Position numbers and translations under genes: made by a program. Shown one piece after another: positions 10,201 to 50,664 of a stretch of DNA of 64,000 nt; the stretch's first letter is position 1; each line of letters starts with the position of its first letter. The DNA comes from Minisyncoccia bacterium (GTDB lineage: Bacteria; Patescibacteriota; Minisyncoccia; Phycocordibacterales; PALSA-1337), in assembly GCA_049997795.1 (NCBI GenBank), contig JBEKVT010000001.1, positions 173,222 to 237,221 on the forward strand, in the 5' to 3' direction. Under the pieces are notes generated by a model. The model was not told the DNA's origin, searched no databases, and saw nothing but the letters and a program-made list of their open reading frames with translations.

Positions 10201-10220
10201 CCTATGGCTCGCTCATCCTA

Positions 10221-13931: not shown

Positions 13932-13952
13932 GTTGTTGATTATATCAATTAA

Positions 13953-14882: not shown

Positions 14883-14959
14883 ATTGTATCATGGCCCTAA
14901 TAAACGGAATATTCACGGTCAGTTGCACAAAAACGCTATTCGTGCTATTGTTATAAATC

Positions 14960-21670: not shown

Positions 21671-21719
21671 GCGCCTTAACGGCACATCGCCGGAATGAGC
21701 GCCTTAACGGCACATCGCC
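21664..21719. repeat. perfect tandem duplication of a 28-bp unit (2 copies)
   Basis: GGAATGAGCGCCTTAACGGCACATCGCC repeated head-to-tail; copy 1 contains the comM stop, copy 2 the M23 peptidase stop. Confidence 0.8.
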
Positions 21720-22849: not shown

Positions 22850-23041
22850 AGTGGACGTGCCAGCTCCGACGTACAACCGCAGATATCGCGCCGTCATTCC
22901 GAAATCCAAACCCCATGAAATAATGGCTCCGCAGAGCCAATCTCTCGCATTCATCGGGTGGATGTGCCTTTTCAGGATAGCAGGGTTGGCCTGAGTGTCA
23001 ATCGCCGCTGTGCATAAGATGTTAATGGTAAGATAGCTCTT

Positions 23042-27696: not shown

Positions 27697-29253
27697 ATGA
27701 CCACTTCACTTCAAAGACACAGCAATAAGACAAAAGGCATTCTTGTGCTGATACTCGCCGTGGTCTTTCTATTCTATGGAGCGAGAGAGAACCAGGTCAG
27801 CGCCCAAGTGAAAGAGAATCCAGCCACCGTTCCTATCGGCACCGGCTGGGATCCGAATTCAATCATGGCCGACATGAAAAACTTCATCCTGGACAAGCTT
27901 GCTTCCACGGTCGCCAAACAGATTCTTCAACAAATGACCGTCGCCACCATCAATTGGATCAATTCCGGTTTCAACGGCAGCCCGGCCTTCCTGACCAATC
28001 CGGAAGGATTCTTCCTGGATACCGCCGACCAGATCACGGGAGCGATGATAGCCGAGAGCGGGCCGCTCCAAAAGCTCTGTTCGCCGTGGAACGTAGACAT
28101 CAGGCTGTCGCTGGCCCTCCTGCAGACCCAGCCCTTGTCTCAACGTTACATATGCACTCTGAGCACTGTCATCAACAATGCCAGCAACGCGACGATAGGC
28201 GGCCACAGCATCCAAGGCTTCGTGAGGGGAGATTTCTCTCAGGGCGGCTGGCCGGCCTTCATATCCATGACAACCGAGCCGCAGAATAATCCTTACGGGA
28301 TCTATCTCCAGGCCCATAGCGACATCTTGAGCGCCGTCGGAGCGAAACAGTCGTTCATCAACCAAGATCTGTTACAAGGTCACGGGTTCTTGTCATGGAA
28401 GAGCTGTAAGAACGTGCAGGTCTCGGCTCTGGACGCCAATCAAGCTATTTTTGGCAGCGCGTCCGTGCTCGGCAGTTCCGGCAACACCAGCGACAACAAC
28501 GGGTCGGTATTGCAGACCGTCCAACAGTGCGAGACCGAGACTCCAGGTTCCGTCATAGAGAACTCCCTTGCCGAGCACCTCGGCACCGGCGTAAGGGAGC
28601 TCGAGCTGGCCAACGACATAAATTCCGTCGTCAACGCCCTGGTCTCGCAGCTAGTCAGCCAGATGCTGACCAAAGGCCTGCGCTCTCTGAGTGCTGGCGG
28701 TTCCGGCCTAAGCGGCAACGGCTTGAGCAGCCTGAATTCATACACTTCCCAGTTACAAGCTGACGCCACGGCGCAAAAAAGCGTGCCGAATGTGGCGTCG
28801 ACTGGGTTCGGCTCGTCGTCTTCGGCCGAGTCGACATATGACCAGGCGATTGGCCTCATCACCGATAGCAAGGACCGCTACGAGACCGCTCGGTCGTGTT
28901 TCACCAACAAGCCAGATTACGCGGCCGCTCCCAGCGCATATAGCGCGGTCCTTGCCATAGACAACACCGTAGAGACCAGCATCGATCCCCTTCTCACGAA
29001 CCTCGCGGCCAAACGAGCAAGCGTCGCCAGCGCCCCAGAGAGCCCGGCCACCCTGAGCGTCTCCGCTACGACCGACATCGGCCAGCTGGTCGAATCCCAA
29101 ACGCAGATCGTCAACGACGCAGTCTCGCAAGGCCAAGCGAGCTCCGACCAGGCGGCGGCAGCGGCGACGGATCTGGAAAATGCCCAGACCCAAGCCCAGG
29201 CGTTCAACCAGGACGCTGCCAGATACCAGTCTGAATGCGATTCCATGCAATAA
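27697..29253 (+). CDS. hypothetical large secreted protein
   Basis: 518 aa, signal peptide GILVLILAVVFLFYGARENQVSAQ; Ser/Thr/Gln/Ala-rich; no identifiable catalytic motif. Confidence 0.45.
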   Translation: MTTSLQRHSNKTKGILVLILAVVFLFYGARENQVSAQVKENPATVPIGTGWDPNSIMADMKNFILDKLASTVAKQILQQMTVATINWINSGFNGSPAFLTNPEGFFLDTADQITGAMIAESGPLQKLCSPWNVDIRLSLALLQTQPLSQRYICTLSTVINNASNATIGGHSIQGFVRGDFSQGGWPAFISMTTEPQNNPYGIYLQAHSDILSAVGAKQSFINQDLLQGHGFLSWKSCKNVQVSALDANQAIFGSASVLGSSGNTSDNNGSVLQTVQQCETETPGSVIENSLAEHLGTGVRELELANDINSVVNALVSQLVSQMLTKGLRSLSAGGSGLSGNGLSSLNSYTSQLQADATAQKSVPNVASTGFGSSSSAESTYDQAIGLITDSKDRYETARSCFTNKPDYAAAPSAYSAVLAIDNTVETSIDPLLTNLAAKRASVASAPESPATLSVSATTDIGQLVESQTQIVNDAVSQGQASSDQAAAAATDLENAQTQAQAFNQDAARYQSECDSMQ

Positions 29254-29258
29254 AGCCG

Positions 29259-31196
29259 ATGAAAAAGCACTTGCCGCGCATAATCTGTATCTTCTCTCTC
29301 TCCACCTTGATCGTCGGGGTGTTCGGCCACGTGGCGCAGGCACAGTCCATCATCAGCAGCGTGCTCGGCTACGGCAACTTCGCCGCCCTTTTTGCCGAAG
29401 TCGTCGCCACGTTCATGAACTGGCTGATCACGGGCATGAGCGTCCTATTGGCCCTGGCCGGCTATCTCCTCAATTTCTCCATAAACCTCACTCTGAACAT
29501 CAAGAGCTTCGTGGACAGCTCCCCCGCCATATACAACACCTGGCGGGCCATCAGGGACATCAGTGACATGTTCATCATCTTCGTCCTTCTGTACGCCGCC
29601 ATCAGGCTCATCTTGGGCTTCGACGCCAAGTTCGGCTCGCTCATCAAGAACATCGTCGTCGCCGGCGTGCTCATAAATTTCAGCTTCTTCTTCGCCGGCC
29701 TGGGCATCGACGCCTCGAACATCATATCCGTACAGCTCTACAACGCCATCGCGCCGGCCAACAGCCTGAACGCCGGCACAGTGAGCTCGAACATGTTCCA
29801 AGGCAGCTTCACGACCGGTCTTGACGGCGGGCTGTCGGACGTCTTCATGAGCTCGCTGAAGATCCCGGCCCTGTATAACGAGAGCCTCACGGACCAGTCG
29901 GCCGCGAGCAAGACGGTGAGCGGGAATACCATCGGGGCGGGCACGGTTTCGGCGCCGCTCAAGATATTCCTCATGGGGGTAGTGGCGCTCGTGATAGAGC
30001 TGACCGCTACCCTGAGCTTCGCCGTGGCGGCCCTCGCCTTCGTCATCAGGTTCGTGATACTCCTATTGCTCCTGGCTTTCTCGCCGATATGGTTCGCCTC
30101 TCATGTGGTGCCAATGACGGCGGAATACGCCAAGAAATGGGTCAGTGCCTACAAGGGCATGCTCATCTTCATGCCGGCTTATCTCCTGCTCATGTATCTA
30201 GCCCTGAACGTCCTCACCACCAGCCCGCTTTTCGGCACCCTGAACAGCGCGGGGGCGCTGGGGAACGGGAAGTGGTACAGCGACTTCCTCGTCCTCGGCG
30301 TCAACGCCGCCATCGTCATCATCCTACTGAACGCGCCTCTGGTCGCCGCCGCCTCGATCGCCGGCACCTCGATCCCGCTCCTCGACAAGGCCGCCAAGAG
30401 CATCGGAGCTAGAGCGATATGGGGCAGGGTCGGGGGGTTTGCCGGGACGCACACCGCGGGCGCCTGGGCCGGCAGACTGGACAAGGGCCTCGCCGGTACG
30501 TGGGCCGGGAATACCCTGCTTGGAAGGGATATAAGGGATGTGACTACCGGCCCTCTGGCCAAGAGCAGGATGGGCGGAGTCCGTTCTTATGAGGAGAGGG
30601 TCACCGCCAGGAAAGAGGTGACTAAGAAGGCCAAGGAAATAGAGCACGGCGAAAGATTGGACAGCCTTCTAGACGAGGTCAAGGCCGGCAAGCCGATGAA
30701 GATCGACCCTGTCACTGGCAAACCCATGATAATGTCGATCATCGGGCAGATGAATGAGAAAGAGAAGCTGGCATTCATCGGGAAGAATGTCAAGGACGAG
30801 GCGGCTCTCAAGGAGATAATCAAACATGTCAAATCGTCAGACTTCGAGGCCGTCAAAAAATCAGACGATCTCCTGGATGAAGAGAAGATAAAGATCGCTA
30901 ACATGCGCAAGGACGCCTTGAACGACGCCCTCAGTAAACACCAGGCTGAAGCAATAAAGAACATGCTGGATAATATGGACGGCAAGGAGCTGCTGAAGCT
31001 TGGCGGCGGCACCTTGATACTCGATGAGGTGATCGGCAACTTGAAACCGAGCCAACTCAAGAATATGGCTGACGAGGGGCTGGATGACACGACAAAGCGC
31101 GTCATTGGGGGCGCGATAGATACGTGGCTCACTGCTCACGGAACTCCTCATCGCGCCAGAGGATATGTGAACAAGAATAGAGCCGAATGGACATGA
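29259..31196 (+). CDS. VirB6/TrbL-like polytopic membrane protein with long charged C-terminal domain
   Basis: signal peptide MKKHLPRIICIFSLSTLIVGVFGHVAQAQS, then at least 6 hydrophobic helices (e.g. LLMYLALNVLTTSPLFG), then a 250-aa Lys/Glu-rich coiled-coil-like tail; sits just upstream of the VirB3-like and VirB4 genes as in Gram-positive T4SS operons. Confidence 0.5.
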   Translation: MKKHLPRIICIFSLSTLIVGVFGHVAQAQSIISSVLGYGNFAALFAEVVATFMNWLITGMSVLLALAGYLLNFSINLTLNIKSFVDSSPAIYNTWRAIRDISDMFIIFVLLYAAIRLILGFDAKFGSLIKNIVVAGVLINFSFFFAGLGIDASNIISVQLYNAIAPANSLNAGTVSSNMFQGSFTTGLDGGLSDVFMSSLKIPALYNESLTDQSAASKTVSGNTIGAGTVSAPLKIFLMGVVALVIELTATLSFAVAALAFVIRFVILLLLLAFSPIWFASHVVPMTAEYAKKWVSAYKGMLIFMPAYLLLMYLALNVLTTSPLFGTLNSAGALGNGKWYSDFLVLGVNAAIVIILLNAPLVAAASIAGTSIPLLDKAAKSIGARAIWGRVGGFAGTHTAGAWAGRLDKGLAGTWAGNTLLGRDIRDVTTGPLAKSRMGGVRSYEERVTARKEVTKKAKEIEHGERLDSLLDEVKAGKPMKIDPVTGKPMIMSIIGQMNEKEKLAFIGKNVKDEAALKEIIKHVKSSDFEAVKKSDDLLDEEKIKIANMRKDALNDALSKHQAEAIKNMLDNMDGKELLKLGGGTLILDEVIGNLKPSQLKNMADEGLDDTTKRVIGGAIDTWLTAHGTPHRARGYVNKNRAEWT

Positions 31197-31864
31197 ATAT
31201 GAACCCACAAGAAGTACCAGAGACAATCAAGAGGTTGGCCGATGACCCGAAGATATATGACGCGATAGAAAAAATCGGGGACAAATTCGACCTGCACATC
31301 GATCAGATCGGGGACCTGGATGCGGAGGTGCGCAGGGTCATACTCGGCATAAGCAAGCCGACTGAGTTCATAAAAAACATCGCTAAGCTGCTGGAGATCG
31401 ACCAAGACAAGGGGGGGCGGATAGCTGAAGAGATAAACAAAGACGTAATTCAATCTATAAGATCCGAGCTGCAGTCACAGACATCGGATAACAGAGCCGC
31501 CGATAACCTATCTCCCATCGAGCGCGCTGGCGGTTTCGAGATAGAGCGGGAACCGGCGAAAAACGCCTCAGACGAGAAGGCCCGGGCCATGACGGAGACC
31601 CAGAAGATAAACATGCTCTCGGACATCGAGAGTCCGACGCCCATCAGGAAGGCGGTCCCGCAGGGCGAAGAGACCTTGAAGACGCTGCAGGGCGAAGAGA
31701 TCAGAAGGGAGCCTTTGGTAGATAGGCTTCTCAAGAATCCTTTGTCCCTTCCGGAGGAAAAGGTCGAGGGGGTCCCGGAAAGGGCACCGGCAGCGAGACC
31801 AGCGCCGAAGGCGGAGCCGCCGCGCAACCTGCCGACGAACGATCTTTATAGGGAGCCCGTCTGA
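31193..31864 (+). CDS. hypothetical acidic soluble protein
   Basis: start overlaps the preceding stop (ATGA); Asp/Glu-rich, no TM segments. Confidence 0.4.
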   Translation: MNMNPQEVPETIKRLADDPKIYDAIEKIGDKFDLHIDQIGDLDAEVRRVILGISKPTEFIKNIAKLLEIDQDKGGRIAEEINKDVIQSIRSELQSQTSDNRAADNLSPIERAGGFEIEREPAKNASDEKARAMTETQKINMLSDIESPTPIRKAVPQGEETLKTLQGEEIRREPLVDRLLKNPLSLPEEKVEGVPERAPAARPAPKAEPPRNLPTNDLYREPV

Positions 31865-31914: not shown

Positions 31915-32349
31915 ATGCGCTTCCAAGTCCCTCAATTCATCGAGGTCGAAGACAGGATCTTCGGGCCGCTCACTCTGAAACAATTCATATATCTGGCCGG
32001 GGGCGGCGGGCTTTCTTTCCTCGTATACGTCCTCGTCGGGAACATCGCCATAGCCATCCTTCCTATCCTCGTCATCATGGGGGGCGTATCGGCCTTGGCG
32101 TTCTATAAGGTCAACAACAAGCCCCTGATCGGCGTCCTGGAGTCGGCTTTCAAATACTGGCTCGGGGGCAAATTGTACATCTGGAAGAAAGAGGCCCGGC
32201 AGCCGCCGACCACGGCCGAAGCCGCAGCCAAGGACGTCAAGAGCTTCGCCTCGGTCATGGTGCCGAAGATCTCCGACAGCAAGCTGAAGGACTTGTCATG
32301 GAGCCTGGATATCAAAGAGAGCATATATTCGAGCAAGGATCAAAAGTGA
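31915..32349 (+). CDS. PrgI/TcpE-like (VirB3-like) small T4SS membrane protein
   Basis: N-terminus MRFQVPQFIEVEDRIFGPLTLKQFIYLAGGGG followed by two TM helices; matches the PrgI-family pattern of Gram-positive conjugation systems; stop overlaps the next start (TGATG). Confidence 0.55.
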   Translation: MRFQVPQFIEVEDRIFGPLTLKQFIYLAGGGGLSFLVYVLVGNIAIAILPILVIMGGVSALAFYKVNNKPLIGVLESAFKYWLGGKLYIWKKEARQPPTTAEAAAKDVKSFASVMVPKISDSKLKDLSWSLDIKESIYSSKDQK

Positions 32350-32993
32350 TGGCCAAGACCCAAGACACAACCCAGGATTTCGTGCCGATCCAGGAGATCC
32401 GCGACGGCGTGGTCATCCTGAAAGACGGCGGCATGCGCGCCATCATCCTGGCGACTTCCCTCAATTTCGCCCTGAAATCGGGTGATGAGCAGAGCGCCAT
32501 CCTGCTCCAGTTCCAGAATTTCCTGAACTCGCTGGACTTCTCCATCCAGATCTTCGTCCAGTCGAAGAAGCTCGACATCCGCCCCTACATCGCCCTCCTC
32601 GAAGACCGATACAAAGAGCAGGTGACTGAGCTCATGAAGATCCAGGTCCGCGAGTACATCGAGTTCATCAAGACCTTCGTGGAATCCACCAATATCATGT
32701 CTAAGAGCTTCTTCGTGGTCATACCGTATGACCCGCCGATACTATCGAACAAGAAGAACCCTCTTTCAGGCGTCTTTGGCGGCAAGAAGAAGGGCGGAGC
32801 GGGAGCCGCGGCCTCGCTCGACCAGCAATTCCAGGAATATCGGGGCCAGCTCGAGCAGCGCGTGGCGGTGGTCGAACAGGGCCTGGTGCGATGCGGCATC
32901 AGGGCGGCCGAGCTCGGCACCGAAGAGGTGGTGGAGCTATTCTATAAGATCTTCAATCCCGGCGAGACCGAGAAGCCTATACAGATAACATGA
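32349..32993 (+). CDS. virB4: VirB4-family ATPase, N-terminal domain fragment (split gene)
   Basis: DFVPIQEIRDGVVILKDGGMRAIILATSLNFALKSGDEQSAILLQFQNFLNSLDFSIQIF resembles the N-terminus of Gram-positive VirB4 homologues (ConE/PrgJ/TcpF type); ends with ATGA overlap onto the next ORF in another frame. Confidence 0.6.
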   Translation: MAKTQDTTQDFVPIQEIRDGVVILKDGGMRAIILATSLNFALKSGDEQSAILLQFQNFLNSLDFSIQIFVQSKKLDIRPYIALLEDRYKEQVTELMKIQVREYIEFIKTFVESTNIMSKSFFVVIPYDPPILSNKKNPLSGVFGGKKKGGAGAAASLDQQFQEYRGQLEQRVAVVEQGLVRCGIRAAELGTEEVVELFYKIFNPGETEKPIQIT

Positions 32994-34804
32994 GCATATT
33001 CTCGAAATTATTCGGCAAAAAGGCGCCTTCGCCCATCGTCTCGGTCCTCCCCGAAGAGATATATCAGGCTGGGGTCTTGGAATTGAAGGACGTCATCGCC
33101 CCGTCGGCCCTGAAGGTGAGCCCCAAGGACGTCAACCTGGGCGAGAAGGTCGGCCGGACGCTCTTCGTCATCTCATATCCGCGCTTCCTGGACGAGAGCT
33201 GGTTCGCGCCGATTATAAATCTCGACAAGGTCTTCAACGTCTCCATATTCATCCATCCCGTCGACACCGCCAAGATCCTTCGCCACTTCCAGAAGAAGGT
33301 CGCTGAGGTCCAGAGCCAGATATCGAGAAGGGAAGAGAAGGGCTTGGTCAGGGACCCGGCCCTCGACACCGCCTATCAGGACCTGGAGACCCTTCGCGAC
33401 CAGCTGATGCAGGCCCAGGAGCACCTTTTCGACGTCGGCGTCTACATAACCATCTTCGCCGACTCCGAGAACGAGCTAGACAAGCTGGAGTCGGAGATCA
33501 AATCAATCCTCGAAGCCAAGCTGGTCTATCTGAAACCGGCCTTGTTCCAGCAGGAGCAGGGCTTCAAGAGCGTCATCCCGATCGGCGATGACCAGCTGGC
33601 GGTCCATTCAAAATTGAATTCCTCGCCCCTCTCGAGCGTCTTCCCGTTCGTGTCCTTCGATCTGACTTCCAACAAGGGCATCCTTTACGGCATCAACCGC
33701 CACAACTCCTCGCTGGTCCTCTTCGATCGTTACTCCCTGGAGAACTATAATTCGGTGACCTTTGCCGTGGCCGGCGCCGGTAAATCCTACTGCACAAAGC
33801 TCGAGATCCTCCGCACTCTTATGTTCGACGGCGATGTCCTGGTCATCGACCCTGAGAAGGAATATGAGTACATGTCGGAGGCCACCGGCGGCAAGTATTT
33901 CAACATCTCCCTCAATTCCGAGCATCATATTAACCCGTTCGACCTGCCGGCCGTGGCCGAGGACGAATCCGCCGCAGACGTCTTGCGCTCGAACATCATC
34001 AACCTGGTCGGCCTCTTCCGCATCATGTTGGGCGGCCTTTCCCAGGAAGAAGACGCCATCATCGACCGGGCCATCACCGAGACTTACGCCCTGAAAGACA
34101 TCACCGCCGAATCAAATTTCCAGAGCGTGGAGCCGCCGCTCCTGTCCGACTTCGAGATGGTCCTCGCGGGGATGGAGGGCGCGGACTCGCTGGTCCAGCG
34201 CCTGACCAAGTACACCAAAGGCACGTGGTCCGGCTTCATCAACCGCCCGTCCAACATCGACATCAACAACAAATTCATCGTCTTCTCGCTCCGCGACATG
34301 GAAGACGAGCTCAAGCCGGTGGCTATGTACATCGTCACCCATTACATCTGGAACGCCGTCCGAAGGGTCAGGAAGAAGAGGCTTCTGGTCATAGATGAGG
34401 CTTGGTGGATGATGAAATCAGAAGACACGGCCTCGTTCCTGTTCAGCCTGGCCAAGCGGGGCCGCAAATACTATCTGGGCTTGGCCACCATCACCCAAGA
34501 CGTGGATGACTTCTTGAGGTCCCCGTACGGCCTGCCGATCCTCACGAACTCGTCCATCCAGATACTCTTGAAGCAATCGCCGACGATCATCGACCATATC
34601 CAGAAGACATTCAATCTGACCGATGAAGAGAAGTACCTGCTCCTCGAATCCGACGTCGGCGAGGGCATCTTCTTCGTCGGCCTGAAGCATGTGGCCATCC
34701 AGATCCGCGCCTCGTACACCGAAGACCAAATCATAACCACCAATCCGGCCCAGGTCATGCAGATCGAGCAGGCCAAGAGGGACCTCGAGCAGGCCGGGGG
34801 CTGA
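32990..34804 (+). CDS. virB4: VirB4-family T4SS ATPase (C-terminal AAA domain-containing part)
   Basis: Walker A AVAGAGKSYCTKLE, Walker B LLVIDEAWWMM, downstream GLATITQD; 604 aa. Confidence 0.8.
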   Translation: MSIFSKLFGKKAPSPIVSVLPEEIYQAGVLELKDVIAPSALKVSPKDVNLGEKVGRTLFVISYPRFLDESWFAPIINLDKVFNVSIFIHPVDTAKILRHFQKKVAEVQSQISRREEKGLVRDPALDTAYQDLETLRDQLMQAQEHLFDVGVYITIFADSENELDKLESEIKSILEAKLVYLKPALFQQEQGFKSVIPIGDDQLAVHSKLNSSPLSSVFPFVSFDLTSNKGILYGINRHNSSLVLFDRYSLENYNSVTFAVAGAGKSYCTKLEILRTLMFDGDVLVIDPEKEYEYMSEATGGKYFNISLNSEHHINPFDLPAVAEDESAADVLRSNIINLVGLFRIMLGGLSQEEDAIIDRAITETYALKDITAESNFQSVEPPLLSDFEMVLAGMEGADSLVQRLTKYTKGTWSGFINRPSNIDINNKFIVFSLRDMEDELKPVAMYIVTHYIWNAVRRVRKKRLLVIDEAWWMMKSEDTASFLFSLAKRGRKYYLGLATITQDVDDFLRSPYGLPILTNSSIQILLKQSPTIIDHIQKTFNLTDEEKYLLLESDVGEGIFFVGLKHVAIQIRASYTEDQIITTNPAQVMQIEQAKRDLEQAGG

Positions 34805-34809
34805 CGACG

Positions 34810-35457
34810 ATGGCCTCGCGCATAGGAAAAGGGGAATGGATCGCCTTGTATGCCGCAACCGGCGCGATCGATCTCATCCAGTTCCTGATCGATTTCACCG
34901 GCGTCGGCGCCGGGGTGAACGAGGCCGCCGATCCGTTCATTGGCGTCGCTCTCGGCGGCTACTTCCAGCTGCGCGGAGTCTCGATGATCAAAAATATCAG
35001 CCGCCTCATGTCGCTTCTCGGCGTCGTCGGGTTGGAGGAAGTGACTTTCGGGGTCGCACCGGCCTGGGTCGTGGACACGTGGTACATCCACAAGACCGTG
35101 CGCCAAGAGAAAGTGGAACAAGAGGAGCAAGAACAGGGCGAGGCCGTAACTTTGAACGTGGCCGATCGGCCCTTGAATCAAGATGGTCGGCGTGAGCCAT
35201 CAGCAGACGGCTCCAAGCCGAGCCGCAACCAAGGTCTCCAACCGCTCAATGTGGACGGTGTAAGGTCACCAAGACCGTCATTGAGTTCGACAATAGGCTC
35301 GGCCGAGTTCAAATCACGGACGGAGAAAGAGATTCAGGATAAAACATATATTCAGGCCAAGTTGAGGGGCTATACTGAGGAACAAGCGACTGAACAGGCG
35401 ACAAACGCAACAAAACCTGATTATAAACAGGTCTGGAAGGCACACGGCGACAGTTAA
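34810..35457 (+). CDS. hypothetical membrane protein
   Basis: 215 aa, 2-3 hydrophobic helices in the N-terminal half, hydrophilic Glu/Gln-rich tail. Confidence 0.4.
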   Translation: MASRIGKGEWIALYAATGAIDLIQFLIDFTGVGAGVNEAADPFIGVALGGYFQLRGVSMIKNISRLMSLLGVVGLEEVTFGVAPAWVVDTWYIHKTVRQEKVEQEEQEQGEAVTLNVADRPLNQDGRREPSADGSKPSRNQGLQPLNVDGVRSPRPSLSSTIGSAEFKSRTEKEIQDKTYIQAKLRGYTEEQATEQATNATKPDYKQVWKAHGDS

Positions 35458-35493
35458 CCGTGCATAACCCGATATCACAGGAGTCTGATTATC

Positions 35494-35502
35494 TGATAAA
35501 AT
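35494..35502 (+). promoter_or_regulatory. internal extended -10 TGaTAAAAT 7 nt upstream of the ATG at 35510
   Basis: tctGATAAAATacagccaATG. Confidence 0.35.
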
Positions 35503-35509
35503 ACAGCCA

Positions 35510-36556
35510 ATGAATCGGTCCGTTCTTCTCTTCAAAACCGTTTTGTTGGTCATGGCTATCTCAGCCGTGGCGGCTTCGGCGGCCTTCGCCCAGGGCATCC
35601 CGACGACCATAGGTGGCCTGGAGCTCACAGCCTCGTCCGACAGCCCGGCCCCGGGCCAGTCAGTGACCATCACGGCCGCGAGCTACAGCGTCGATATCAA
35701 CGCCGCGAATCTGGTTTGGACGGCTGGCGGTAAGACGATAGCCAAGGGAGTCGGTGTAACAAGCGTCACGGTCCAGGCCCCGGCCTTGGGCAAGCGGCTC
35801 AAGGTGAACGTGTCGGCGGTCGCCTCGGACGGGACCTCCTTTAATAGTTCCGTAGTCATAGGCTCCGGCGCAGTGGACCTCATAATCGAGCCTGACGGTT
35901 ATGCGCCTCCCTTTTTCAAAGGAAAGCTGCCTGTGGTATACCAGAATGCCGTTAAGGTCACCGCCGTGCCCCATCTCGCCAATTCTTCGGGGGTCGAGTA
36001 CGACCCCAAGACCTTGGTGTACAAGTGGCAACAGGGTGATTCGGTATTGCAAGACCAGTCTGGATACGGCAGGCAATCGGTCGTTATACAGGGCGGCATC
36101 ATCCCGCGGGCCTATACTCTGACGGCCACAGTGACGACCCGCGACGGCAGTACGCAAGGGATGGGACTAACCACGGTATCTTTCGGACCTCCATCCCTAA
36201 TTTTCTACAGGAACGATCCATTGTACGGGCCTCTTTTCAACAACGCCATAGGGAACAGTATATATCTGGGAACCCAGCGCGAGGCTGGCGTCCTCGCAGT
36301 ACCTTACGGCTTCGGCCTGCCGGCGTCTGGCCTCGGCGATTTGTCGCTCGCTTGGTTCATCAACGGCAAGGAGCATCCGGAGTTGGCGTCGGGCGATTCC
36401 GTCACCCTGCGCGCGCCGGACAATTCGGCTGGGTCGTCGAACATCGAGCTGGACGTCGACAATAAGATCGACATCCTCCAACAGGCCAGTGCCATATTCC
36501 AGGCGGTGTTCAACGCCGCGGCGAGCACTACCTCGCAGTCGCCGGTGACTTTTTAA
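35510..36556 (+). CDS. hypothetical secreted beta-rich protein
   Basis: signal peptide MNRSVLLFKTVLLVMAISAVAASAAFAQG; repetitive beta-strand-like segments (VTITAASYSVDINAANLVWTAGG, VTVQAPALGKRLKVNVSAVASDG), suggestive of Ig-like folds. Confidence 0.45.
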   Translation: MNRSVLLFKTVLLVMAISAVAASAAFAQGIPTTIGGLELTASSDSPAPGQSVTITAASYSVDINAANLVWTAGGKTIAKGVGVTSVTVQAPALGKRLKVNVSAVASDGTSFNSSVVIGSGAVDLIIEPDGYAPPFFKGKLPVVYQNAVKVTAVPHLANSSGVEYDPKTLVYKWQQGDSVLQDQSGYGRQSVVIQGGIIPRAYTLTATVTTRDGSTQGMGLTTVSFGPPSLIFYRNDPLYGPLFNNAIGNSIYLGTQREAGVLAVPYGFGLPASGLGDLSLAWFINGKEHPELASGDSVTLRAPDNSAGSSNIELDVDNKIDILQQASAIFQAVFNAAASTTSQSPVTF

Positions 36557-36607
36557 TCAAATTCCGTGGACAATTCTCATCTCAAATCAATCGTCAAGGG
36601 GGGCCTT

Positions 36608-38053
36608 ATGGCCGCGGCTCTTTTGGCGCTAGCGTTAATGACCCCGCTGGCGGCCTCAGCACAAACGGCATCGTCTGGTGTGACGTCATTTTCAGCAGAA
36701 CCATTAACTTTACCGACAACTCCTTCTCCACAGACAGCGCCATCCTCACTAACAACATTACCACCAGCAACGTTATCTTTACCCGCAACACCTTCTTCTG
36801 TGACGCCGTTTTCGGCAGCACCATTAACCTTGCCAACCTTATTGCCCACGGCGCCTTCACAAAACAACCCAGTAAACAACCCGGCGGCGCCGACGTATAC
36901 CCCCCTCGAGCCGTTGCCGTGCATCCCCACAGGGAGCAGCACCTCTTGCACGAGTGGCGGAGTAACTTACACCAGGGGAAGTTCGATGAGCAGCGTCGAT
37001 TTTCAGGGCTATATCCAATACATGTTCAACCTGGCCATCGCCGTGGCGGCGGCCGCGGCTGTATTCATGATCGTCTTCGGCGGCTTCCAGTATATGACCA
37101 CCGACTCGTGGCAAGGGAAGAGCGCCGGGTTGGATAAGGCCAGGAACGCCGTCTATGGCCTTCTTTTGGTGCTCGCCTCATACCTCATCCTGCGGACCAT
37201 TGATCCGCGCCTGGTGGCCATCCCGAGCACTTTGGTGGCGCCGCTCAACATCAATTATGGGGGCCTGACCACGTCCGAGAGCCTTCTTTCCACGATAGCA
37301 AGCGACGCCAATCAATACTTATCTCAAGACAAGCAGTTCATGGGCGACGCCGCGGCGACGCAAAGCAAGATAACCGACCTGGAATCTCAGAAGACAGCTC
37401 TGGAAAACAAGATATGTTCGGCTCCAGGAAACTCTTGTCCTGGAGGCCCGGACGTCGCCAACCAGATGTGCAGTGACGCGATCTCCAACAAAGACGACCC
37501 TATCTATAATGATTGCGTGGCCCTGGCAAAGCTCAACGATCAGGAAGGCGGGCTCAAAGGAACGCTGTGGACTGAGACTGCGCAACATCTCATGGCCGGC
37601 AATCTGAGCGCGTGCTTCTCGACCGGCGGCGCCCAGTCGGACCCATCCGCCCAAGCGGACGCCTGTCATAAAATGATCAATGATTGGGCTAATACCTACA
37701 GCGGTCTGTCGACCGGGGCGGGACAATCGGCTCAAATGATAAGCGACTACGCCGCCTACGCGAACGCCATCATCGATATCCAAAAAACTATCCTGGCCTA
37801 TAACCCCGGCGCGGCCTCGACAATCAACACACTTGAGAACATCCAGAGTATAGCGTCCCTCGGCGCATCGAAGGCCTTAGGGACGAACACCATCGTCAGT
37901 TGGCTGTTACCTAACAGCTTGACTACCTCCGGGACCGTCAAGGGCATACAATCCATAGCGGACAAGACGACCATTCAGGACCCGTCCTTGAGAGCCCAAT
38001 TCGTCAGCCAAGTGCAGGCGTATGAGGCGCAGCTCAACGGCGGCAGAAAATGA
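36608..38053 (+). CDS. secreted protein with tandem Pro/Ser/Thr repeats and a VirB2/TrbC-like two-helix hydrophobic hairpin (candidate pilin)
   Basis: start chosen at the ATG preceded by the Shine-Dalgarno AAGGGGGG; signal peptide MAAALLALALMTPLAASAQT; two roughly 40-aa repeats (VTSFSAEPLTLPTT / VTPFSAAPLTLPT); hairpin YMFNLAIAVAAAAAVFMIVFGG-FQYMTTDSWQGKSAGLDKARN-AVYGLLLVLASYLIL. Confidence 0.4.
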   Translation: MAAALLALALMTPLAASAQTASSGVTSFSAEPLTLPTTPSPQTAPSSLTTLPPATLSLPATPSSVTPFSAAPLTLPTLLPTAPSQNNPVNNPAAPTYTPLEPLPCIPTGSSTSCTSGGVTYTRGSSMSSVDFQGYIQYMFNLAIAVAAAAAVFMIVFGGFQYMTTDSWQGKSAGLDKARNAVYGLLLVLASYLILRTIDPRLVAIPSTLVAPLNINYGGLTTSESLLSTIASDANQYLSQDKQFMGDAAATQSKITDLESQKTALENKICSAPGNSCPGGPDVANQMCSDAISNKDDPIYNDCVALAKLNDQEGGLKGTLWTETAQHLMAGNLSACFSTGGAQSDPSAQADACHKMINDWANTYSGLSTGAGQSAQMISDYAAYANAIIDIQKTILAYNPGAASTINTLENIQSIASLGASKALGTNTIVSWLLPNSLTTSGTVKGIQSIADKTTIQDPSLRAQFVSQVQAYEAQLNGGRK

Positions 38054-39366
38054 AAAAAACAAACCTCATCATATTGATAGCCGTGATCGTCTTCGTCCTC
38101 GTCGCAGCCGGAGGGACGTACTGGTTCTTCTTCATGCAAGCCCCGGCTCCGACTACGACCGGAACCGGCGGGACGGGCCAGTCCGGCTTCCAGCCCTTCG
38201 GCAGGACGACACCGTTCGGGGGCGGCTCGAATACAAATGCGACCGGCACGAGTACCGGTAACCAGAATTACAATGGTTGGGTACCGGGGGCTCCGTTCAA
38301 GCTTCCGATCTTGCGCTTGCTTTCCGACACGCCGATCGGCGGCTACGGCGCTTCGACCACTGCCTCGACTACCGTGGTGCGCTGGGTCGATCGGGGGAGA
38401 GGAAATGTGTATGAAGCGACGTATGATTCGCCGCTCATCACGACCATCTCCAACACCGTCGTGCCAAGGATATACGAGAGTATGTGGAACAAGAACTTAA
38501 CGGCCTTCATAGGCTCGCTCCTCCCGGACGGCGATCGGGCGCCAACGAACGTATATGCCCAGATCGTCGCCCATTCGACTTCGACCGGGGCCATGACGAG
38601 CACTGGAAGCGCATCTGGGAACGCCTCCGTCACGCCATTCGAACTGCGGGGCAAAAATCTGCCGACCGGCCTCATCGGCTACGCCGTCTCGCCAGACAAG
38701 AGCAAGCTATTCATGCTCATAAACCAGAATGGTAACGGCGTTGGGTATGTCTCGACCTTCGATGGTCAGAAGACGGCCGCGATCTTCACGTCCCCGCTCA
38801 CTGAGGTCAATGTCGACTGGCCGACGGATAACGCAATCGCCATAACCACCAAAGGATCGTCCGTCTATGACGGTTTCCTCTACCTGGTCAATCCGAAGAC
38901 TGGTGTATGGAAAAGAGCCGTCGGGCCGCTCCCGGGACTCAGCGCTTCGGTGAGCCACGATGGTAAATATGCTCTTGTCTCGTCGGCGGACGGCAACAAC
39001 GGAATCTCGACGAGCATATACTCTCTGGCCTCCGGCACTTCCGCAAACGCCGCAATCCATACCTTGGCTGACAAGTGCGCGTGGGGTAATTTCTACAAAG
39101 ACACGGTGTACTGCGCGGTGCCGTCGCAGGCTGTCACCGGAGCTTATCCGGAAGACTGGTACGCCGGCACGCTTTCGACCATCGACAAGATATGGCAGCT
39201 TGACGCCTTGACGGGAGGGGTCCGCCTGGTCTCCTCGATCACGGGCCAATCTGACCGTGTCGTCGATGCCTTCAACCTCGGCCTGGACGCCAAGGACGGC
39301 TACCTCTTCTTCATGAACAAGGATGACTTGTCTTTCTGGTCGCTGGACCTCGTGCGATCGCAATAG
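38050..39366 (+). CDS. membrane-anchored beta-propeller-like protein
   Basis: N-terminal anchor LIILIAVIVFVLVAAGGTYWFFF; Gly/Thr-rich linker; repeated segments resembling PD40/TolB-type blades (DGKYALVSSADGNNGISTSIYSL); start overlaps the previous stop (ATGA). Confidence 0.45.
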   Translation: MKKTNLIILIAVIVFVLVAAGGTYWFFFMQAPAPTTTGTGGTGQSGFQPFGRTTPFGGGSNTNATGTSTGNQNYNGWVPGAPFKLPILRLLSDTPIGGYGASTTASTTVVRWVDRGRGNVYEATYDSPLITTISNTVVPRIYESMWNKNLTAFIGSLLPDGDRAPTNVYAQIVAHSTSTGAMTSTGSASGNASVTPFELRGKNLPTGLIGYAVSPDKSKLFMLINQNGNGVGYVSTFDGQKTAAIFTSPLTEVNVDWPTDNAIAITTKGSSVYDGFLYLVNPKTGVWKRAVGPLPGLSASVSHDGKYALVSSADGNNGISTSIYSLASGTSANAAIHTLADKCAWGNFYKDTVYCAVPSQAVTGAYPEDWYAGTLSTIDKIWQLDALTGGVRLVSSITGQSDRVVDAFNLGLDAKDGYLFFMNKDDLSFWSLDLVRSQ

Positions 39367-39408: not shown

Positions 39409-40152
39409 CTACATCTTGAGGTGCCTCTTTCGTATGTACAATTCCTGGAAGAGCGTCATGAGAGAGCTGGTCATCCAGTAGACGGCCATAACGGATGATG
39501 CTTCGGGAAAGCGGGCGGGAATGATCCAGTATATCGAAACGAAAGCCAGGACTGGCACGAGATATTTCATCTGCGTGTTCATTGAATCAGCCAGTCTGGC
39601 CGGCGAGCTCTGTCCTGGCGGGGCTTTGGGCGCCTGCTTGGCTTGTTTGGAGGCCAGCGAGAACTGGAGCTGGAGGAATTGGATGATGCCCGTGGCGACC
39701 GCCAGGATGAGGCTCGGCTTGGTCAAATCTATGAACCCGAGAAAATTGGTCTTCAGAATGGGCGCGAAAACTAGAGGGTATAGGAGGTTGGTTTGGACCG
39801 TCGGGATGATCTTATAGAAGACCGAGATGAGCGCGAGCAGGATGGGCAGTTGGATGATAAGGAGCAGGAAGCCGGAAAAGGGCTTGACGCCCTTCTCCTT
39901 GTAGAGCTCCATGATCTTCAAGGCCTGGACCTGGCGGTCGCTCGCATACTGGTTCCTCAGCCTGTTCGCCTCCGGCTCGATGCTCTTCATGCGCACCTGG
40001 GTGAGCAGGGCCGACTTCGAGAGAGGGAAGAGGATGACTTTGACGATCGCCGTGAAGATTATCACTGCTATGCCCACGTCAATCCACGGCAAGAGGTCCA
40101 TGATGACGATCAAGCAGTTGTAGAGCGGCCGGAAGATGAACTCGTTATACAT
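39409..40152 (-). CDS. yidC: membrane protein insertase YidC (short form)
   Basis: LLPWIDVGIAVIIFTAIVKVILFPLS and 5 TM helices typical of YidC/Oxa1; conserved rnpA-yidC order; start chosen at MYNEFIF. Confidence 0.8.
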   Translation of the reverse strand: MYNEFIFRPLYNCLIVIMDLLPWIDVGIAVIIFTAIVKVILFPLSKSALLTQVRMKSIEPEANRLRNQYASDRQVQALKIMELYKEKGVKPFSGFLLLIIQLPILLALISVFYKIIPTVQTNLLYPLVFAPILKTNFLGFIDLTKPSLILAVATGIIQFLQLQFSLASKQAKQAPKAPPGQSSPARLADSMNTQMKYLVPVLAFVSIYWIIPARFPEASSVMAVYWMTSSLMTLFQELYIRKRHLKM

Positions 40153-40163
40153 GTCGTGTAATG

Positions 40164-40517
40164 TTAGCGCAAAACCCCGGCCTTCACAAAAAGATCTCGG
40201 AGGTCGCATGTCATCTCCGTCATTGTGGCGGTCGTGGCCTTCCTCGTGGCGAACACAATGGCGCGGAGGCCCGTTTTACCGACCATCCGGAGCAGGGGCC
40301 TGGCCGCGGCATACATCCGGCGTCTCATGGCGTTCCTGGTCACGGCCGTCTTGGCGATCCTCTTCGGCGCCACGACGGATGCGCGGAAACTCTTTCCGTC
40401 GCCGGCGTCAAACGATCTCAATAAGAAAAGGGGGGAATGAAAAATCCTCCCTTTTTCCATCGTTTCATCGAATTGTCCCTTGGAAAGCCTATTAGATCGG
40501 CGGAACATCCTGTTCAT
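40164..40517 (-). CDS. rnpA: ribonuclease P protein component
   Basis: RLSKGQFDETMEKGRIFHSPLFLL matches the RnpA family; start (MNRMF) overlaps the rpmH stop by 1 nt. Confidence 0.7.
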   Translation of the reverse strand: MNRMFRRSNRLSKGQFDETMEKGRIFHSPLFLLRSFDAGDGKSFRASVVAPKRIAKTAVTRNAMRRRMYAAARPLLRMVGKTGLRAIVFATRKATTATMTEMTCDLRDLFVKAGVLR

Positions 40518-40651
40518 TATACCGCTATGCGGCGGCGCCCCTTGGCTCGGCGACGGGCCAGGGTCCTTTTGCCGCCGGGGGTTCTCATTCTCGTTCTGAA
40601 CCCGTGAGACCTGGCGCGCTTGCGTTTTCTCGGTTTGTAGGTGAACGACAT
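40517..40651 (-). CDS. rpmH: 50S ribosomal protein L34 (below the ORF-track length cutoff)
   Basis: hand translation [44 protein letters not shown], 44 aa, classic L34 sequence. Confidence 0.85.
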
Positions 40652-40670
40652 GTGGGAAGAGCATAGCAGA

Positions 40671-40709
40671 CTATCCACAAATTATCAACATGTTTTTCAG
40701 ACATCCACA
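40671..40709 (+). promoter_or_regulatory. cluster of three DnaA-box-like 9-mers upstream of dnaA
   Basis: CTATCCACA, TTATCAACA and ACATCCACA in the same orientation within the 106-bp rpmH-dnaA spacer (consensus TTATCCACA). Confidence 0.5.
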
Positions 40710-40757
40710 AGTTTGCAGATTTGTAAACAAGTATATACTTACCCCCGACGTACCCCC

Positions 40758-42101
40758 ATGAACGACTTCTCAAAGATGTGGCAGACGGCTCTCATCGAGA
40801 TAGAATCGGCCGTGTCCCAGGCCAATTTTTCCACGTGGTTCAAGGAGACGGTCATACTGAGGGAGGAGGGCGGGACCATATATCTCGGCGTGCCAAACTC
40901 GTTCACCCAGGAATGGCTCCAGAAGAAATTCCACAACTCCATCCTTCGCATCCTCCGGCAGATGAACGACCGGGTGCGAGCCCTGGAATACGTCATCGTC
41001 AAGGACGAGGCCCGGCCGGCCGGGCCGAGGAAGTCCTCGTCTCCGGCGCCGACCATGCCGATGCCGCTCCAGGACTTCTATATCAATAAAGAAGACAACC
41101 TCAATCCCAGATACACCTTCGATACTTTCGTGGTCGGGCCTTTTAACGAGCTGCCATACGCCGCCTCCCAAACAGTCATCAAGAATCCCGGGCAGACATA
41201 CAATCCGCTGTTCATCTACGGGGAGACCGGGAGAGGCAAAACCCATCTGATCCAGGCGGTCGGCAACCAGATCAAGGCGCTGTACCCCAACAAAAAAGTC
41301 TTCTATCTCACCTCCGAACGGTTCGGCAGCGAGCTCCTGGCGGCCCTCCAGGAGGGGAAGGCCCAGCAATTCAAGGATAAGTACCGTAAATACGAGGTCC
41401 TGATCATGGACGACGTGCAATTCTTCTCCGGCAAGGAGAAATTCCAGGAGGAGTTCTTCCATCTGTTCAATCTGTTCAAGGACAGCGGCCGGCAGCTGGT
41501 CTTCTCGTCGGACAAGCATCCGAACACTCTCCCCGGTATGGAGGACCGCTTGCGCGGCCGATTCAACGCCGGTATGGTCCTCGACATCCCCGAGCCGGAT
41601 CACGAGTCGAGGATGTGCATCGTCAAGGCCAAGTGCGGCGCCTATAACGTCACCTTGTCGAATGAGGCAGTCGAGTATGTGGCCTCGACCATCAAAGACA
41701 ACATCCGTGAGATAGAAGGGGTGGTCAATATCATCGCTTGCCAGAGCCAATTCAAGAACCGGGAGCTGAATCTGAACGAGATAAGGAGCATCCTGAAGAA
41801 CAACACCAAACCAAGGAAGCTCCTGTCCGTGAAGGACTTAGTCAAGACCGTCTCAGAATTCTACAATATCGGGGAAGAAACCATATACAACAAGACCAGA
41901 CGGAAAGAGGTGGTGAGGCCGAGGCAGGTCGTCATGTACCTCCTGCGGGAGGACTTCAGCGTCTCCTTTCCGTCGATCGGCGAGAAGTTGGGAGGCAGGG
42001 ACCACACCACCGTCATTCATTCCTATAACAAGATGAAGGAGGAAATAAAGGTCGATCCGCTCCTGTCGCAGGAGATAAGTCAGCTGCGGTCGATGATCTG
42101 A
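40758..42101 (+). CDS. dnaA: chromosomal replication initiator DnaA
   Basis: start chosen at MNDFSKMWQTALIEIE; AAA+ Walker A GETGRGKTHL, Walker B LIMDDVQF; C-terminal DNA-binding domain (VVMYLLRE...GGRDHTTVIHS). Confidence 0.92.
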   Translation: MNDFSKMWQTALIEIESAVSQANFSTWFKETVILREEGGTIYLGVPNSFTQEWLQKKFHNSILRILRQMNDRVRALEYVIVKDEARPAGPRKSSSPAPTMPMPLQDFYINKEDNLNPRYTFDTFVVGPFNELPYAASQTVIKNPGQTYNPLFIYGETGRGKTHLIQAVGNQIKALYPNKKVFYLTSERFGSELLAALQEGKAQQFKDKYRKYEVLIMDDVQFFSGKEKFQEEFFHLFNLFKDSGRQLVFSSDKHPNTLPGMEDRLRGRFNAGMVLDIPEPDHESRMCIVKAKCGAYNVTLSNEAVEYVASTIKDNIREIEGVVNIIACQSQFKNRELNLNEIRSILKNNTKPRKLLSVKDLVKTVSEFYNIGEETIYNKTRRKEVVRPRQVVMYLLREDFSVSFPSIGEKLGGRDHTTVIHSYNKMKEEIKVDPLLSQEISQLRSMI

Positions 42102-42335
42102 TTTGTGGAAATGGTGTTGAATGATTGTTATCGGGCTGTGTCACAGGCCAGGGACAAGAAGGGACTAAAAGAGACAGTCACGATCGGGTATGGCGACTTA
42201 TCAATTCACAATCAACAGGACACCGGGCTAGACCATCCGAAACGAGCAGCCAGAGTATGAGCTTTTTGGGATACCAACCTCTCCCCACCCCTAATAACAA
42301 TAATAAGATCTTTTTATAAGATATATAAAACATCC
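42102..42335. other. dnaA-dnaN spacer: candidate oriC segment with weak DnaA-box-like sites and an AT-rich tract
   Basis: TGTGGAAAT near 42105 (7/9 to the box complement) and an AT-rich run taataacaataataagatctttttataagatatataaaac next to the dnaN start. Confidence 0.35.
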
Positions 42336-43442
42336 ATGAAGTGCGAAGTCCAGGTGGAAAAACTCAAACGCGCGATATCTCTGACCGAGAAAGTCGCAGG
42401 TCGCCGCACCACATTACCTGTATTGTCTTGCGTTTTTGTCGACATAAAGAAGGAACGCGCCGTTTTCAAGGCCACTAATCTCGATCTCGGCGTCAGCGTG
42501 GAGATCCCGGTGAAATCCGATTGGGAGGGAGTATTCGCCGTTCCGGCCCGCACAATTTCTTCGTTCCTGGCTCAGATAGGAGACAAAGAGCAGCTGGCCC
42601 GCCTCGAGCCCATCTCGAAAAACCTCGATATAACCCTGTCCAAATCGAGAGGTGTCTTGAAGACGCTCCCACCCGAAGACTTCCCGGAGATTCCGACGGT
42701 CGCTGAAGGGAAGACGATATCTTTCCCGTCCGAGGCCTTGGTCAAAGGATTCAGATCCGTGTGGTACAGCGCCTCGGCCTCCAACGTGAAGCCGGAGCTC
42801 TCGAGCATATATGTGCACCATGACGCCGGATTCGTGGTGTTCGTCGCCACAGACTCCTTCCGTCTGGCCGAGAAGAAGGTCCGTCTGCAGAAGACGGCCG
42901 GGTTCGATGACATCCTCATCCCCTTCAAGAATAGCAGTGAGATAACCAGGATCTTGGAGGCAATGGGACCGACCGTCACCATGCGGTCGAACAAGAACCT
43001 GGTGTCCTTCGAGTCGGGCGACGTCCGAGTGACCTCTCGTGTCATCGACGGAGTCTTCCCGGATTACCGGCAAATCGTACCAAAAGGCTATACCACCGAG
43101 GCGATCGTCCTGAAGCAGGATCTCATGAACGCCCTGAAGGTCTCCACTGTGTTCTCTGATGCCTTCAACCAGATCCGCCTCACCGCCGACCCAAAGAAGA
43201 AGACCTTCAGCATCGAGACCAAGAACGCCGATGTCGGCGAGAACCGCTCCGAGATAGACGCCGCTCTCTCCGGAGAGCCGATCGAGGTCAACTTCAACTG
43301 TAAATATGTCTCCGACAGCCTCCAATCTATCGAAGCGGACAGCGTCTCTCTCCAGTGGAACGGCCGCAACAAGCCCATGGTCGTGAGGCCGGTTTCCGGG
43401 GACCAGACCTTCATGTACCTAGTCATGCCCATGAACAGGTGA
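42336..43442 (+). CDS. dnaN: DNA polymerase III beta sliding clamp
   Basis: 368 aa, three-domain clamp; conserved dnaA-dnaN synteny; TATAAA hexamer 6 nt upstream of the ATG. Confidence 0.9.
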   Translation: MKCEVQVEKLKRAISLTEKVAGRRTTLPVLSCVFVDIKKERAVFKATNLDLGVSVEIPVKSDWEGVFAVPARTISSFLAQIGDKEQLARLEPISKNLDITLSKSRGVLKTLPPEDFPEIPTVAEGKTISFPSEALVKGFRSVWYSASASNVKPELSSIYVHHDAGFVVFVATDSFRLAEKKVRLQKTAGFDDILIPFKNSSEITRILEAMGPTVTMRSNKNLVSFESGDVRVTSRVIDGVFPDYRQIVPKGYTTEAIVLKQDLMNALKVSTVFSDAFNQIRLTADPKKKTFSIETKNADVGENRSEIDAALSGEPIEVNFNCKYVSDSLQSIEADSVSLQWNGRNKPMVVRPVSGDQTFMYLVMPMNR

Positions 43443-50530: not shown

Positions 50531-50540
50531 ATTCCCGCTA

Positions 50541-50549
50541 ATTATAGCA
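50541..50549 (-). promoter_or_regulatory. extended -10 TGcTATAAT (minus strand) 10 nt upstream of the pilB start
   Basis: reverse complement of attatagca. Confidence 0.45.
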
Positions 50550-50582
50550 GGAACGAGGCCGGCCTCCGCCGCCCCGGGGGTA

Positions 50583-50612
50583 TTGACTTTTTCATATATT
50601 GTGTGGTAGAAT
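50583..50612 (+). promoter_or_regulatory. sigma70-type promoter TTGACT-18-TGgTAGAAT for the lipoprotein gene
   Basis: tatTGACTttttcatatattgtgTGgTAGAATtg, followed by the Shine-Dalgarno GGAGG 10 nt before the ATG at 50665. Confidence 0.55.
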
Positions 50613-50664
50613 TGCGTCGCAACTCTGACAGAATAAGCTGTGAGTTGTAGGAGGCTCTTTCCCA

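Follow-up and report, generated by a model that had tools for sequence, protein, structure and literature searches.

A long PF18895 pilin-like protein at an origin-proximal type IV secretion locus of a Minisyncoccia bacterium

The window analysed here is a 64,000-nucleotide (64-kb) stretch of the chromosome of a Minisyncoccia bacterium. On its forward strand, at 36566..38053, lies an open reading frame (ORF) for a pilin-like protein, the third gene downstream of a VirB4 ATPase gene in a locus for a type IV secretion system (T4SS). An earlier note, made from the DNA letters, had described the product as a secreted protein of 480 amino acids (aa) in which Pro/Ser/Thr-rich repeats precede a hydrophobic hairpin of the kind found in T4SS pilins. 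That the hairpin belongs to Pfam family PF18895 (T4SS_pilin, "Type IV secretion system pilin") is near-certain. The homologs all come from Patescibacteria (metagenome-assembled genomes of Parcubacteria, Paceibacterota and Taylorbacteria), and the host chromosome is that of a member of the Patescibacteria (candidate phyla radiation, Parcubacteria/Paceibacteria) and not of a classical Gram-positive bacterium. Residues are numbered from the GTG codon at 36566, which gives a protein of 495 aa; in the form that starts at ATG 36608 (481 aa) all numbers are lower by 14.

Domain layout of the pilin-like protein

The pilin module, a two-helix hydrophobic hairpin encoded at 37001..37201 (+ strand), is apparent from Pfam, hydropathy, the AlphaFold model and conservation. 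Hydropathy peaks at aa 149-178 and 194-213 coincide with AlphaFold helices at aa 146-178 and 186-212, which are joined by a basic loop around WQGKSAGLDKARN; the hairpin with a charged loop that had been read from the translation is thereby confirmed. Lys and Arg together number 3.3 on average in the inter-helix loop of the family. A signal peptide and, after it, two hydrophobic helices with a short basic loop between them are thus supported by hydropathy, the model and the loop composition taken together. PF18895 matches aa 150-210 (37013-37195) over model positions 9-69 of 71, with a score of 27.2 bits for the full protein at a gathering cut-off of 26.6 bits. The isolated module scored 29.9 bits and the modules of three homologs 19.7, 32.4, and 34.8 bits; PF18895 was the top match for every family member tested, near the full length of the model. 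Of the 120 homologs listed, about half have a precomputed PF18895 annotation, and one is named "pilin" at NCBI; an NCBIfam search with the pilin protein gave no match. The segment is placed among the T4SS pilins by the hidden Markov model (HMM) and not in an unrelated family of membrane anchors, the outcome that the earlier note had held up against its own proposal.

Conservation is highest in and directly around the hairpin. The mean frequency of the majority residue ranges from 0.63 to 0.84 over aa 151-225; Gly173 is invariant across the family and Gly172 is conserved in at least 90 % of it. Directly after the second helix follows a linker with the consensus RTIDPRLVAIPxTLVxPL (37196..37261, + strand; aa 211-232), with a mean majority-residue frequency of 0.83, which lies almost entirely beyond the end of the Pfam match at aa 210. 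It may serve as an exit linker or as a processing site. On the other side of the hairpin, at 36881..37000 (+ strand; aa 106-145), the mature N-terminal motif YTxLEPLPC and a small β-hairpin with Cys119 and Cys128 are found, for which AlphaFold predicts strands at aa 127-130 and 133-136. The motif (aa 106-120) has a mean majority-residue frequency of 0.67. Tyr111, Leu114, Pro116, Leu117, Pro118, Cys119, and Cys128 are each conserved in at least 90 % of the homologs, so that the Cys-containing segment pointed out in the earlier note is a family feature.

The gene has two in-frame start codons. A Shine-Dalgarno-like sequence, AAGGGGGG (36596..36603, + strand), was seen on direct inspection 4 nt 5' of ATG 36608, and no such site was found upstream of GTG 36566. 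As the only one of the two with a Shine-Dalgarno site, ATG 36608 is favoured and is probably the start, which gives the 481-aa protein. Starting at GTG 36566 would add MDNSHLKSIVKGGL and thereby give the signal peptide a basic n-region; a start at ATG 36608 leaves the signal peptide without any basic residue, so that the choice of start is ambiguous. The signal peptide itself (36608..36661, + strand; aa 15-32) was recognised by hydropathy and consists of the hydrophobic core AAALLALALMTPLAASA and the motif ASA before Gln. Homologs show the same pattern, with MKK, a hydrophobic h-region and A-x-A before Gln, and cleavage would take place after ASA. The secreted protein with signal peptide postulated earlier is in this respect well founded.

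The N-terminal tail of the mature protein, encoded at 36662..36880 (+ strand; aa 33-105), is rich in Pro, Ser and Thr (PST) and predicted to be disordered. These three residues make up 56 % of aa 33-118, and the predicted local distance difference test (pLDDT) values of the AlphaFold model are below 50 for aa 24-104, leaving the stretch unstructured in the model. Cys119 is preceded by 118 residues in this protein, compared with a median of 47.5 in the homolog family, in which the corresponding region is of low complexity and varies in length, from a handful of residues behind the signal peptide to over 100. By this comparison, the PST tail is a lineage-specific expansion or insertion of approximately 70 aa. 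That repeats in this tail take part in surface or host contact, as the earlier note suggested, is a hypothesis.

Two direct DNA repeats are located in the sequence for the tail. Copy 1 (36669..36717, + strand; 49 nt) encodes SSGVTSFSAEPLTLPT, and copy 2 (36789..36837, + strand), which is 78 % identical to it and encodes SSVTPFSAAPLTLPT, lies 120 nt, or 40 codons, downstream. Local alignment of the repeat DNA gave a score of 43, the maximum among 1000 shuffles being 31. The duplication of which the earlier note had spoken is therefore real at the DNA level. Its two imperfect repeats of some 40 aa did not stand as such in the protein, where the repeat is clear only in a core of 15 aa (SGVTSFSAEPLTLPT and SSVTPFSAAPLTLPT, 12 of 15 residues identical) and the 40-aa units outside this core are alike only in their PST-rich composition; the protein repeat score was reached by 13 of 2000 composition-preserving shuffles. 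The repeats are locally AT-richer, as had been remarked, albeit modestly so (G+C content 0.45 and 0.53 for the two copies, 0.56 for the whole gene). Only one other contig was found with the repeat, and it has both copies: the metagenome contig Ga0116116_1012274 from the Joint Genome Institute (JGI), which measures 3532 bp and constitutes locus L081. It is 99.97 % identical to positions 34976-38507 of the window, with one mismatch, and the same population has thus been sampled independently.

The hairpin and linker are followed by an all-α domain with six Cys residues (37274..38035, + strand; aa 237-490). AlphaFold predicts nine helices in it, with pLDDT mostly above 90, in good agreement with the C-terminal domain of about 280 aa that had been delimited before. 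The domain is a family-wide property: the segment after Pro214 has a median length of 267.5 aa in the 120 homologs and is shorter than 150 aa in only two of them. At least 225 codons follow the module in 72 of 81 loci, and most of the shorter segments are probably cut by contig ends, as judged for the loci together and not for each separately. With a mean majority-residue frequency of 0.1-0.35, the domain is poorly conserved and yet alignable over its length; it is a fast-evolving, putatively exposed domain common to the whole family.

The cysteines in this domain behave as pairs. Their number is even in all of the 120 homologs (none in 43, two in 21, four in 35, six in 16, and eight in 5 proteins), and Cys302/Cys317 and Cys350/Cys367 are gained or lost jointly (phi 0.80 and 0.68, respectively). 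As the cysteines are even in number and paired and the inter-helix loop is basic, the sequences support a topology in which both termini are outside and disulfides are formed extracytoplasmically. When the C-terminal domain alone was compared with 1.84 billion representative proteins, ten matches were obtained, nine of which were fusions to the pilin module; in this search, the domain thus occurred solely in such fusions. The tenth match, a repetitive protein of 2237 aa, was spurious. No specific fold match was found for the domain. Its identification as a VirB5/TraC pilus-tip protein, with which it would share the character of an all-helical extracellular T4SS protein, was considered and dropped, as specific structural similarity to VirB5 was not found.

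The secretion locus and its neighbours

Three genes upstream of the pilin gene identify the locus. A PrgI/VirB3-like protein is encoded at 31915-32349 (+ strand; PF12666, 42.2 bits), TrsD at 32298-32993 (+ strand; NF041427, E 1.6e-7, below the cut-off with 31.3 vs 200 bits), and the VirB4 ATPase, with a TraG P-loop domain, at 32990-34804 (+ strand; NF045971, 379 bits at a cut-off of 325). VirB4 accompanied by separate TrsD and PrgI/VirB3 genes is the combination by which Patescibacteria systems resembling the monoderm mating-pair formation class FATA (MPF-FATA) are recognised. With the PF18895 score above its cut-off and these genes in the same locus, the earlier proposal of a T4SS-pilin-like hairpin in a T4SS operon holds. 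TrsD has similarity to an N-terminal stretch of VirB4 (NF045975 match, model positions 97-233), and the trsD stop and the virB4 start share 4 nt, so that the pair looks like a split VirB4 such as has been reported for Patescibacteria (PMC12102498).

The other genes of the locus have no clear family. The gene at 29235..31196 (+ strand; present in 54 of 80 loci) encodes a polytopic membrane protein of 653 aa, in which hydropathy shows about eight hydrophobic segments and which has no Pfam or HMM match; from its position and topology it is a candidate VirB6/PrgH-like protein. Genes without a family match are located at 27697-29253, near the locus edges (20 of 80 loci), and at 31187-31864 (52 of 80), both on the + strand. 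Between virB4 and the pilin gene lie, on the same strand, a 215-aa gene without a family match (34810-35457; 37 of 80 loci) and a 348-aa gene for a protein with a signal peptide and weak PKD/Ig-like matches (35510-36556; 79 of 80). Directly downstream, a 438-aa protein with an N-terminal membrane anchor is encoded at 38050..39366 (+ strand; 70 of 80 loci), its start overlapping the pilin stop (ATGA). These five co-conserved genes without a match (at 27697, 31187, 34810, 35510, and 38050) probably encode lineage-specific T4SS components. On a single JGI contig, the homolog of the 348-aa protein and a long pilin are fused in frame in a protein of 732 aa (P0084), the N-terminal part of which is a full-length homolog of the 348-aa protein (54 % identity over 345 aa). 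Such a fusion may be a Rosetta-stone hint that the two proteins cooperate, or an artefact of assembly or gene calling.

Gene order recurs in 80 species-level Parcubacteria/Paceibacteria genomes as VirB6-like, the gene at 31187, PrgI, TrsD, VirB4, (the gene at 34810), the gene at 35510, pilin, the gene at 38050, yidC(-), rnpA(-), dnaA, and dnaN. The closest relative among the representatives of GTDB has a protein identity of only 50 %. Exactly one pilin-like ORF is present in each of 81 loci. A family HMM and a hydropathy screen revealed no extra one within these loci, nor a second one in the 64-kb window, though highly divergent short pilins could escape such a search. In the window, the origin-region genes yidC(-), rnpA(-), dnaA(+), and dnaN(+) flank the T4SS downstream (39409..43442), ksgA and uvrD are found upstream of it, and the remainder is housekeeping. 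Among the window ORFs scanned there was no relaxase or VirD4 domain and, with Pfam, no TraF-like maturation peptidase; a separate VirB5 gene could not be recognised in the locus.

A few further features of the window were recorded. A 576-aa protein with LysM and Peptidase_M23 domains is encoded at 21704-23434 (- strand), a few kb upstream of the T4SS. Its ORF overlaps that of uvrD (23042-24970) at the 5' end, and the true start is probably further in. By analogy, it may be a cell-wall hydrolase replacing VirB1, as M23 and LysM domains occur on VirB1-like proteins (PMC12102498). A PilB-like ATPase of the T2SSE type with an MshEN domain is encoded at 48857-50746 (- strand), about 10 kb from the T4SS, and type IV pilus machinery is thus encoded near the same origin region. 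Positions 8000-14900 have a lower G+C content than their surroundings (0.48-0.50 vs 0.55-0.62) and contain four tRNA genes (Gly, Pro, Gly, Arg), an Exo_endo_phos nuclease gene, a gene of the CCA-adding-enzyme/poly(A)-polymerase family (PolyA_pol head and HD domain), and a tyrosine recombinase gene (13953-14882, - strand). The patch may be an integrated element or a compositional quirk.

Comparison with known pilins and secretion systems

The T4SSs of Patescibacteria have been surveyed by Quinonero-Coronel et al. (PMC12102498), who described a VirB4 clade that is specific to Patescibacteria and akin to the MPF-FATA class of monoderms. VirB4 comes with TrsD, PrgI, and VirB6 in these bacteria, a relaxase is usually absent, and in Paceibacteria the locus is often near dnaA, dnaN, rnpA, and ksgA. 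By means of PF18895 and similar profiles, VirB2-like pilins were identified in 1,948 assemblies, in 1,135 of them near virB4; one Paceibacteria genome in Table S3 of that study encodes PrgI, TrsD, and VirB4 and, two genes further downstream, a protein of the PF18895 family. The locus in the window is chromosomal, lies near dnaA, dnaN, rnpA, and ksgA, and has no relaxase or coupling protein among the ORFs scanned; it is a T4SS of the kind reported there. Wang et al. (PMC10633639) found T4SS and pilin genes to be essential in Southlakia epibionticum and noted that Gram-positive T4SSs in general are without a pilus. A nomenclature review from 2025 (PMC12857230) again gives the Patescibacteria pilins as a notable exception and raises the question whether a monoderm T4SS truly builds a pilus. 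The earlier remark that a pilin in such an operon is unusual is thus correct relative to Firmicutes-type systems and not new for Patescibacteria, for which such pilins have already been published (PMC10633639, PMC12102498, PMC12857230).

With the PF18895 pilins known from Patescibacteria, such as the array of S. epibionticum ML1 (PMC10633639) and the set of PMC12102498, the protein in the window shares the Pfam family, the signal peptide with two hydrophobic helices, and a PrgI/TrsD/VirB4 locus near dnaA with no relaxase nearby. It differs in its length of 481-495 aa, its helical, Cys-paired domain of about 270 aa, and its PST insertion of about 70 aa. The pilins of S. epibionticum ML1 form an array, as they do in Saccharimonadia and Microgenomatia, whereas a single gene is present in the window and in each of the loci of its family. 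VirB2 is presented as a small protein in PMC10633639 and PMC12102498 and a long form is not mentioned in the text of these two papers that was searched. In the literature searched, no description was found of the C-terminal ectodomain, of the lineage-specific PST insertion, or of the long form as the sole pilin of a locus. A PF18895 pilin at an origin-proximal Patescibacteria T4SS is therefore already on record, and the gene in the window is a member of an under-described long subfamily.

The likeness to the canonical TrbC/VirB2 pilins (PF04956; A. tumefaciens VirB2, PDB 8exh/8cue) is smaller. Both have a leader peptide and two hydrophobic helices with a short loop, and the genes of both lie in T4SS operons alongside those for homologs of VirB3 and VirB4. 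The protein in the window is approximately four times longer and has no detectable sequence homology to these pilins, its host is monoderm and theirs diderm, and it has Cys residues in its extracellular parts. No match of PF04956 to the protein encoded at 36608..38053 was obtained at E <= 10; one homolog gave an in-register match below threshold (E 0.038). The proposed kinship with the TrbC/VirB2 families was thus not confirmed, as neither PF04956 nor profile comparison with hhalign gave significant similarity to canonical VirB2. Homology to canonical VirB2 by direct sequence or fold similarity could not be shown. The designation "VirB2-like" is based on membership in the Pfam family, on domain architecture and genomic position, and on the annotation that has been published, from structures, for related proteins of Saccharibacteria.

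Conserved assembly cores with variable outer parts are familiar from flagellin (D0/D1 vs D2/D3) and from type IV pilins (N-terminal helix vs globular head). The protein in the window may be compared with these in that a part presumably serving assembly is conserved and an outer part varies; neither the folds nor the machineries are related, and the likeness is one of design logic only.

Mechanism, alternatives and meaning

Given the observed family membership, domain layout, topology indicators, and conserved T4SS context, the gene probably encodes, and this is held with moderate confidence, the single VirB2-like pilin (PF18895) of a chromosomal, origin-proximal MPF-FATA-like T4SS in a Parcubacteria/Paceibacteria bacterium, working as follows. 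The protein would be exported by Sec and its signal peptide cleaved after ASA. The hydrophobic helices would then be inserted as a membrane hairpin whose basic loop faces the cytoplasm. With the loop on that side, the PST tail, the disulfide-stapled β-hairpin, and the helical C-terminal domain of about 270 aa would lie outside the cell membrane, where their cysteines would be oxidised. The VirB4-powered machine would extract the hairpin and stack it into the core of a filament or stalk, as VirB2-type pilins do. Projecting outward, both the N-terminal tail and the C-terminal domain would diverge quickly, and could touch the host cell or wall. Polymerisation, exposure on a filament, and a role in host contact would follow from this scheme, the filament step of which is much less certain than the family identity.

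Several observations weigh against such a pilin. The full-protein score exceeds the PF18895 cut-off by just 0.6 bits. When the hairpin family was aligned by hhalign with A. tumefaciens VirB2, the sequence of which was verified against PDB 8cue/8exh, and with a 121-sequence VirB2 alignment, probabilities of 1.9 % and 0.5 % were obtained, weak negatives in view of the narrow profiles (effective number of sequences, Neff, 2.6 and 3.7). Among all PDB chains, neither the full protein nor the profiles of the family and of the hairpin retrieved anything beyond coiled-coil noise by sequence, and a fold link to solved pilins was not found. Of 120 VirB2 homologs retrieved, 119 are 102-135 aa and one is 193 aa in length, far shorter than the protein in the window, and it may be difficult to accommodate a domain of about 270 aa per subunit on a filament of the VirB2 type. 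No characterised VirB2-type pilin is known to have a large extra domain. In the literature searched, no pilus has been observed for any Paceibacteria T4SS.

Much of this evidence also fits a protein that is not a filament subunit at all. The hairpin could anchor a surface or stalk protein beside the VirB6/VirB4 channel, the ectodomain then serving as a stalk across the cell wall or taking the part of an adhesin, much as VirB5 or the surface adhesins of Gram-positive bacteria do. The bulk of the ectodomain relative to the small VirB2 homologs, the presence of only one pilin-like gene in the locus, and the missing link to solved pilins would all be accounted for in this way. A PrgB-type adhesin was, moreover, not detected in Patescibacteria (PMC12102498), so that another protein must provide contact. 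Against it speaks that the hairpin with its two glycines and its loop, and likewise the motifs on either side, are far more strongly conserved than a simple anchor needs; an anchored stalk is considered rather unlikely, if still to be reckoned with.

A pro-pilin is less probable still. By analogy with known pilins, the C-terminal domain would be removed after export and a pilin of approximately 100 aa would enter the filament alone. The linker RTIDPRLVAIPxTLVxPL, the most conserved motif outside the hairpin and situated directly after helix 2, could be the processing site, and C-terminal processing has precedents: TrbC of RP4 is trimmed at its C-terminus, and VirB2 is also processed. A domain of about 270 aa with paired cysteines that is kept in 120 homologs of genome-reduced bacteria is, on the other hand, unlikely to be a mere propeptide, and the Pfam scan of the window ORFs yielded no TraF-like peptidase. 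That the protein is an unrelated double-pass membrane protein with a chance Pfam match in a coincidental T4SS neighbourhood is very improbable, since the borderline full-protein score and the weak matches of the hairpin to TrbL and DUF308 stand against PF18895 as top match in every member tested over nearly the full model, the in-register PF04956 match of one homolog, and an order with VirB4, TrsD, and PrgI that is fixed in 80 genomes.

If the gene does encode a VirB2-like pilin, as favoured here, this pilin could be a "decorated" one. A VirB2-like core filament would then display on each subunit a fast-evolving, disulfide-stapled helical domain and a variable tail of low complexity, much like the outer domains of flagellin, and this would set host specificity for the presumed epibionts of a large Paceibacteria clade. 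This more specific proposal is tentative. If it is true, a large outer domain would be seen on a VirB2-type filament for the first time, and there would be a way to learn what this essential T4SS of Patescibacteria touches.

Found widely among Patescibacteria and situated at the replication origin, the T4SS has proved essential in the single species examined for this (PMC10633639, PMC12102498, PMC12857230). A pilin-like gene at such a locus is ordinary for Patescibacteria, and the long subfamily is a testable object, with one pilin gene per locus in at least 80 species, a near-invariant assembly module, and a fast-evolving exposed domain. Should the C-terminal domain be displayed on a filament, it would be a natural candidate for the determinant of host contact and specificity and also a convenient epitope with which to localise the machine. 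Should the protein be a membrane-anchored stalk, the PF18895 "pilins" would not all be filament subunits. In this sense, the gene is a good starting point for finding out whether these monoderm T4SSs form a surface structure and in what way.

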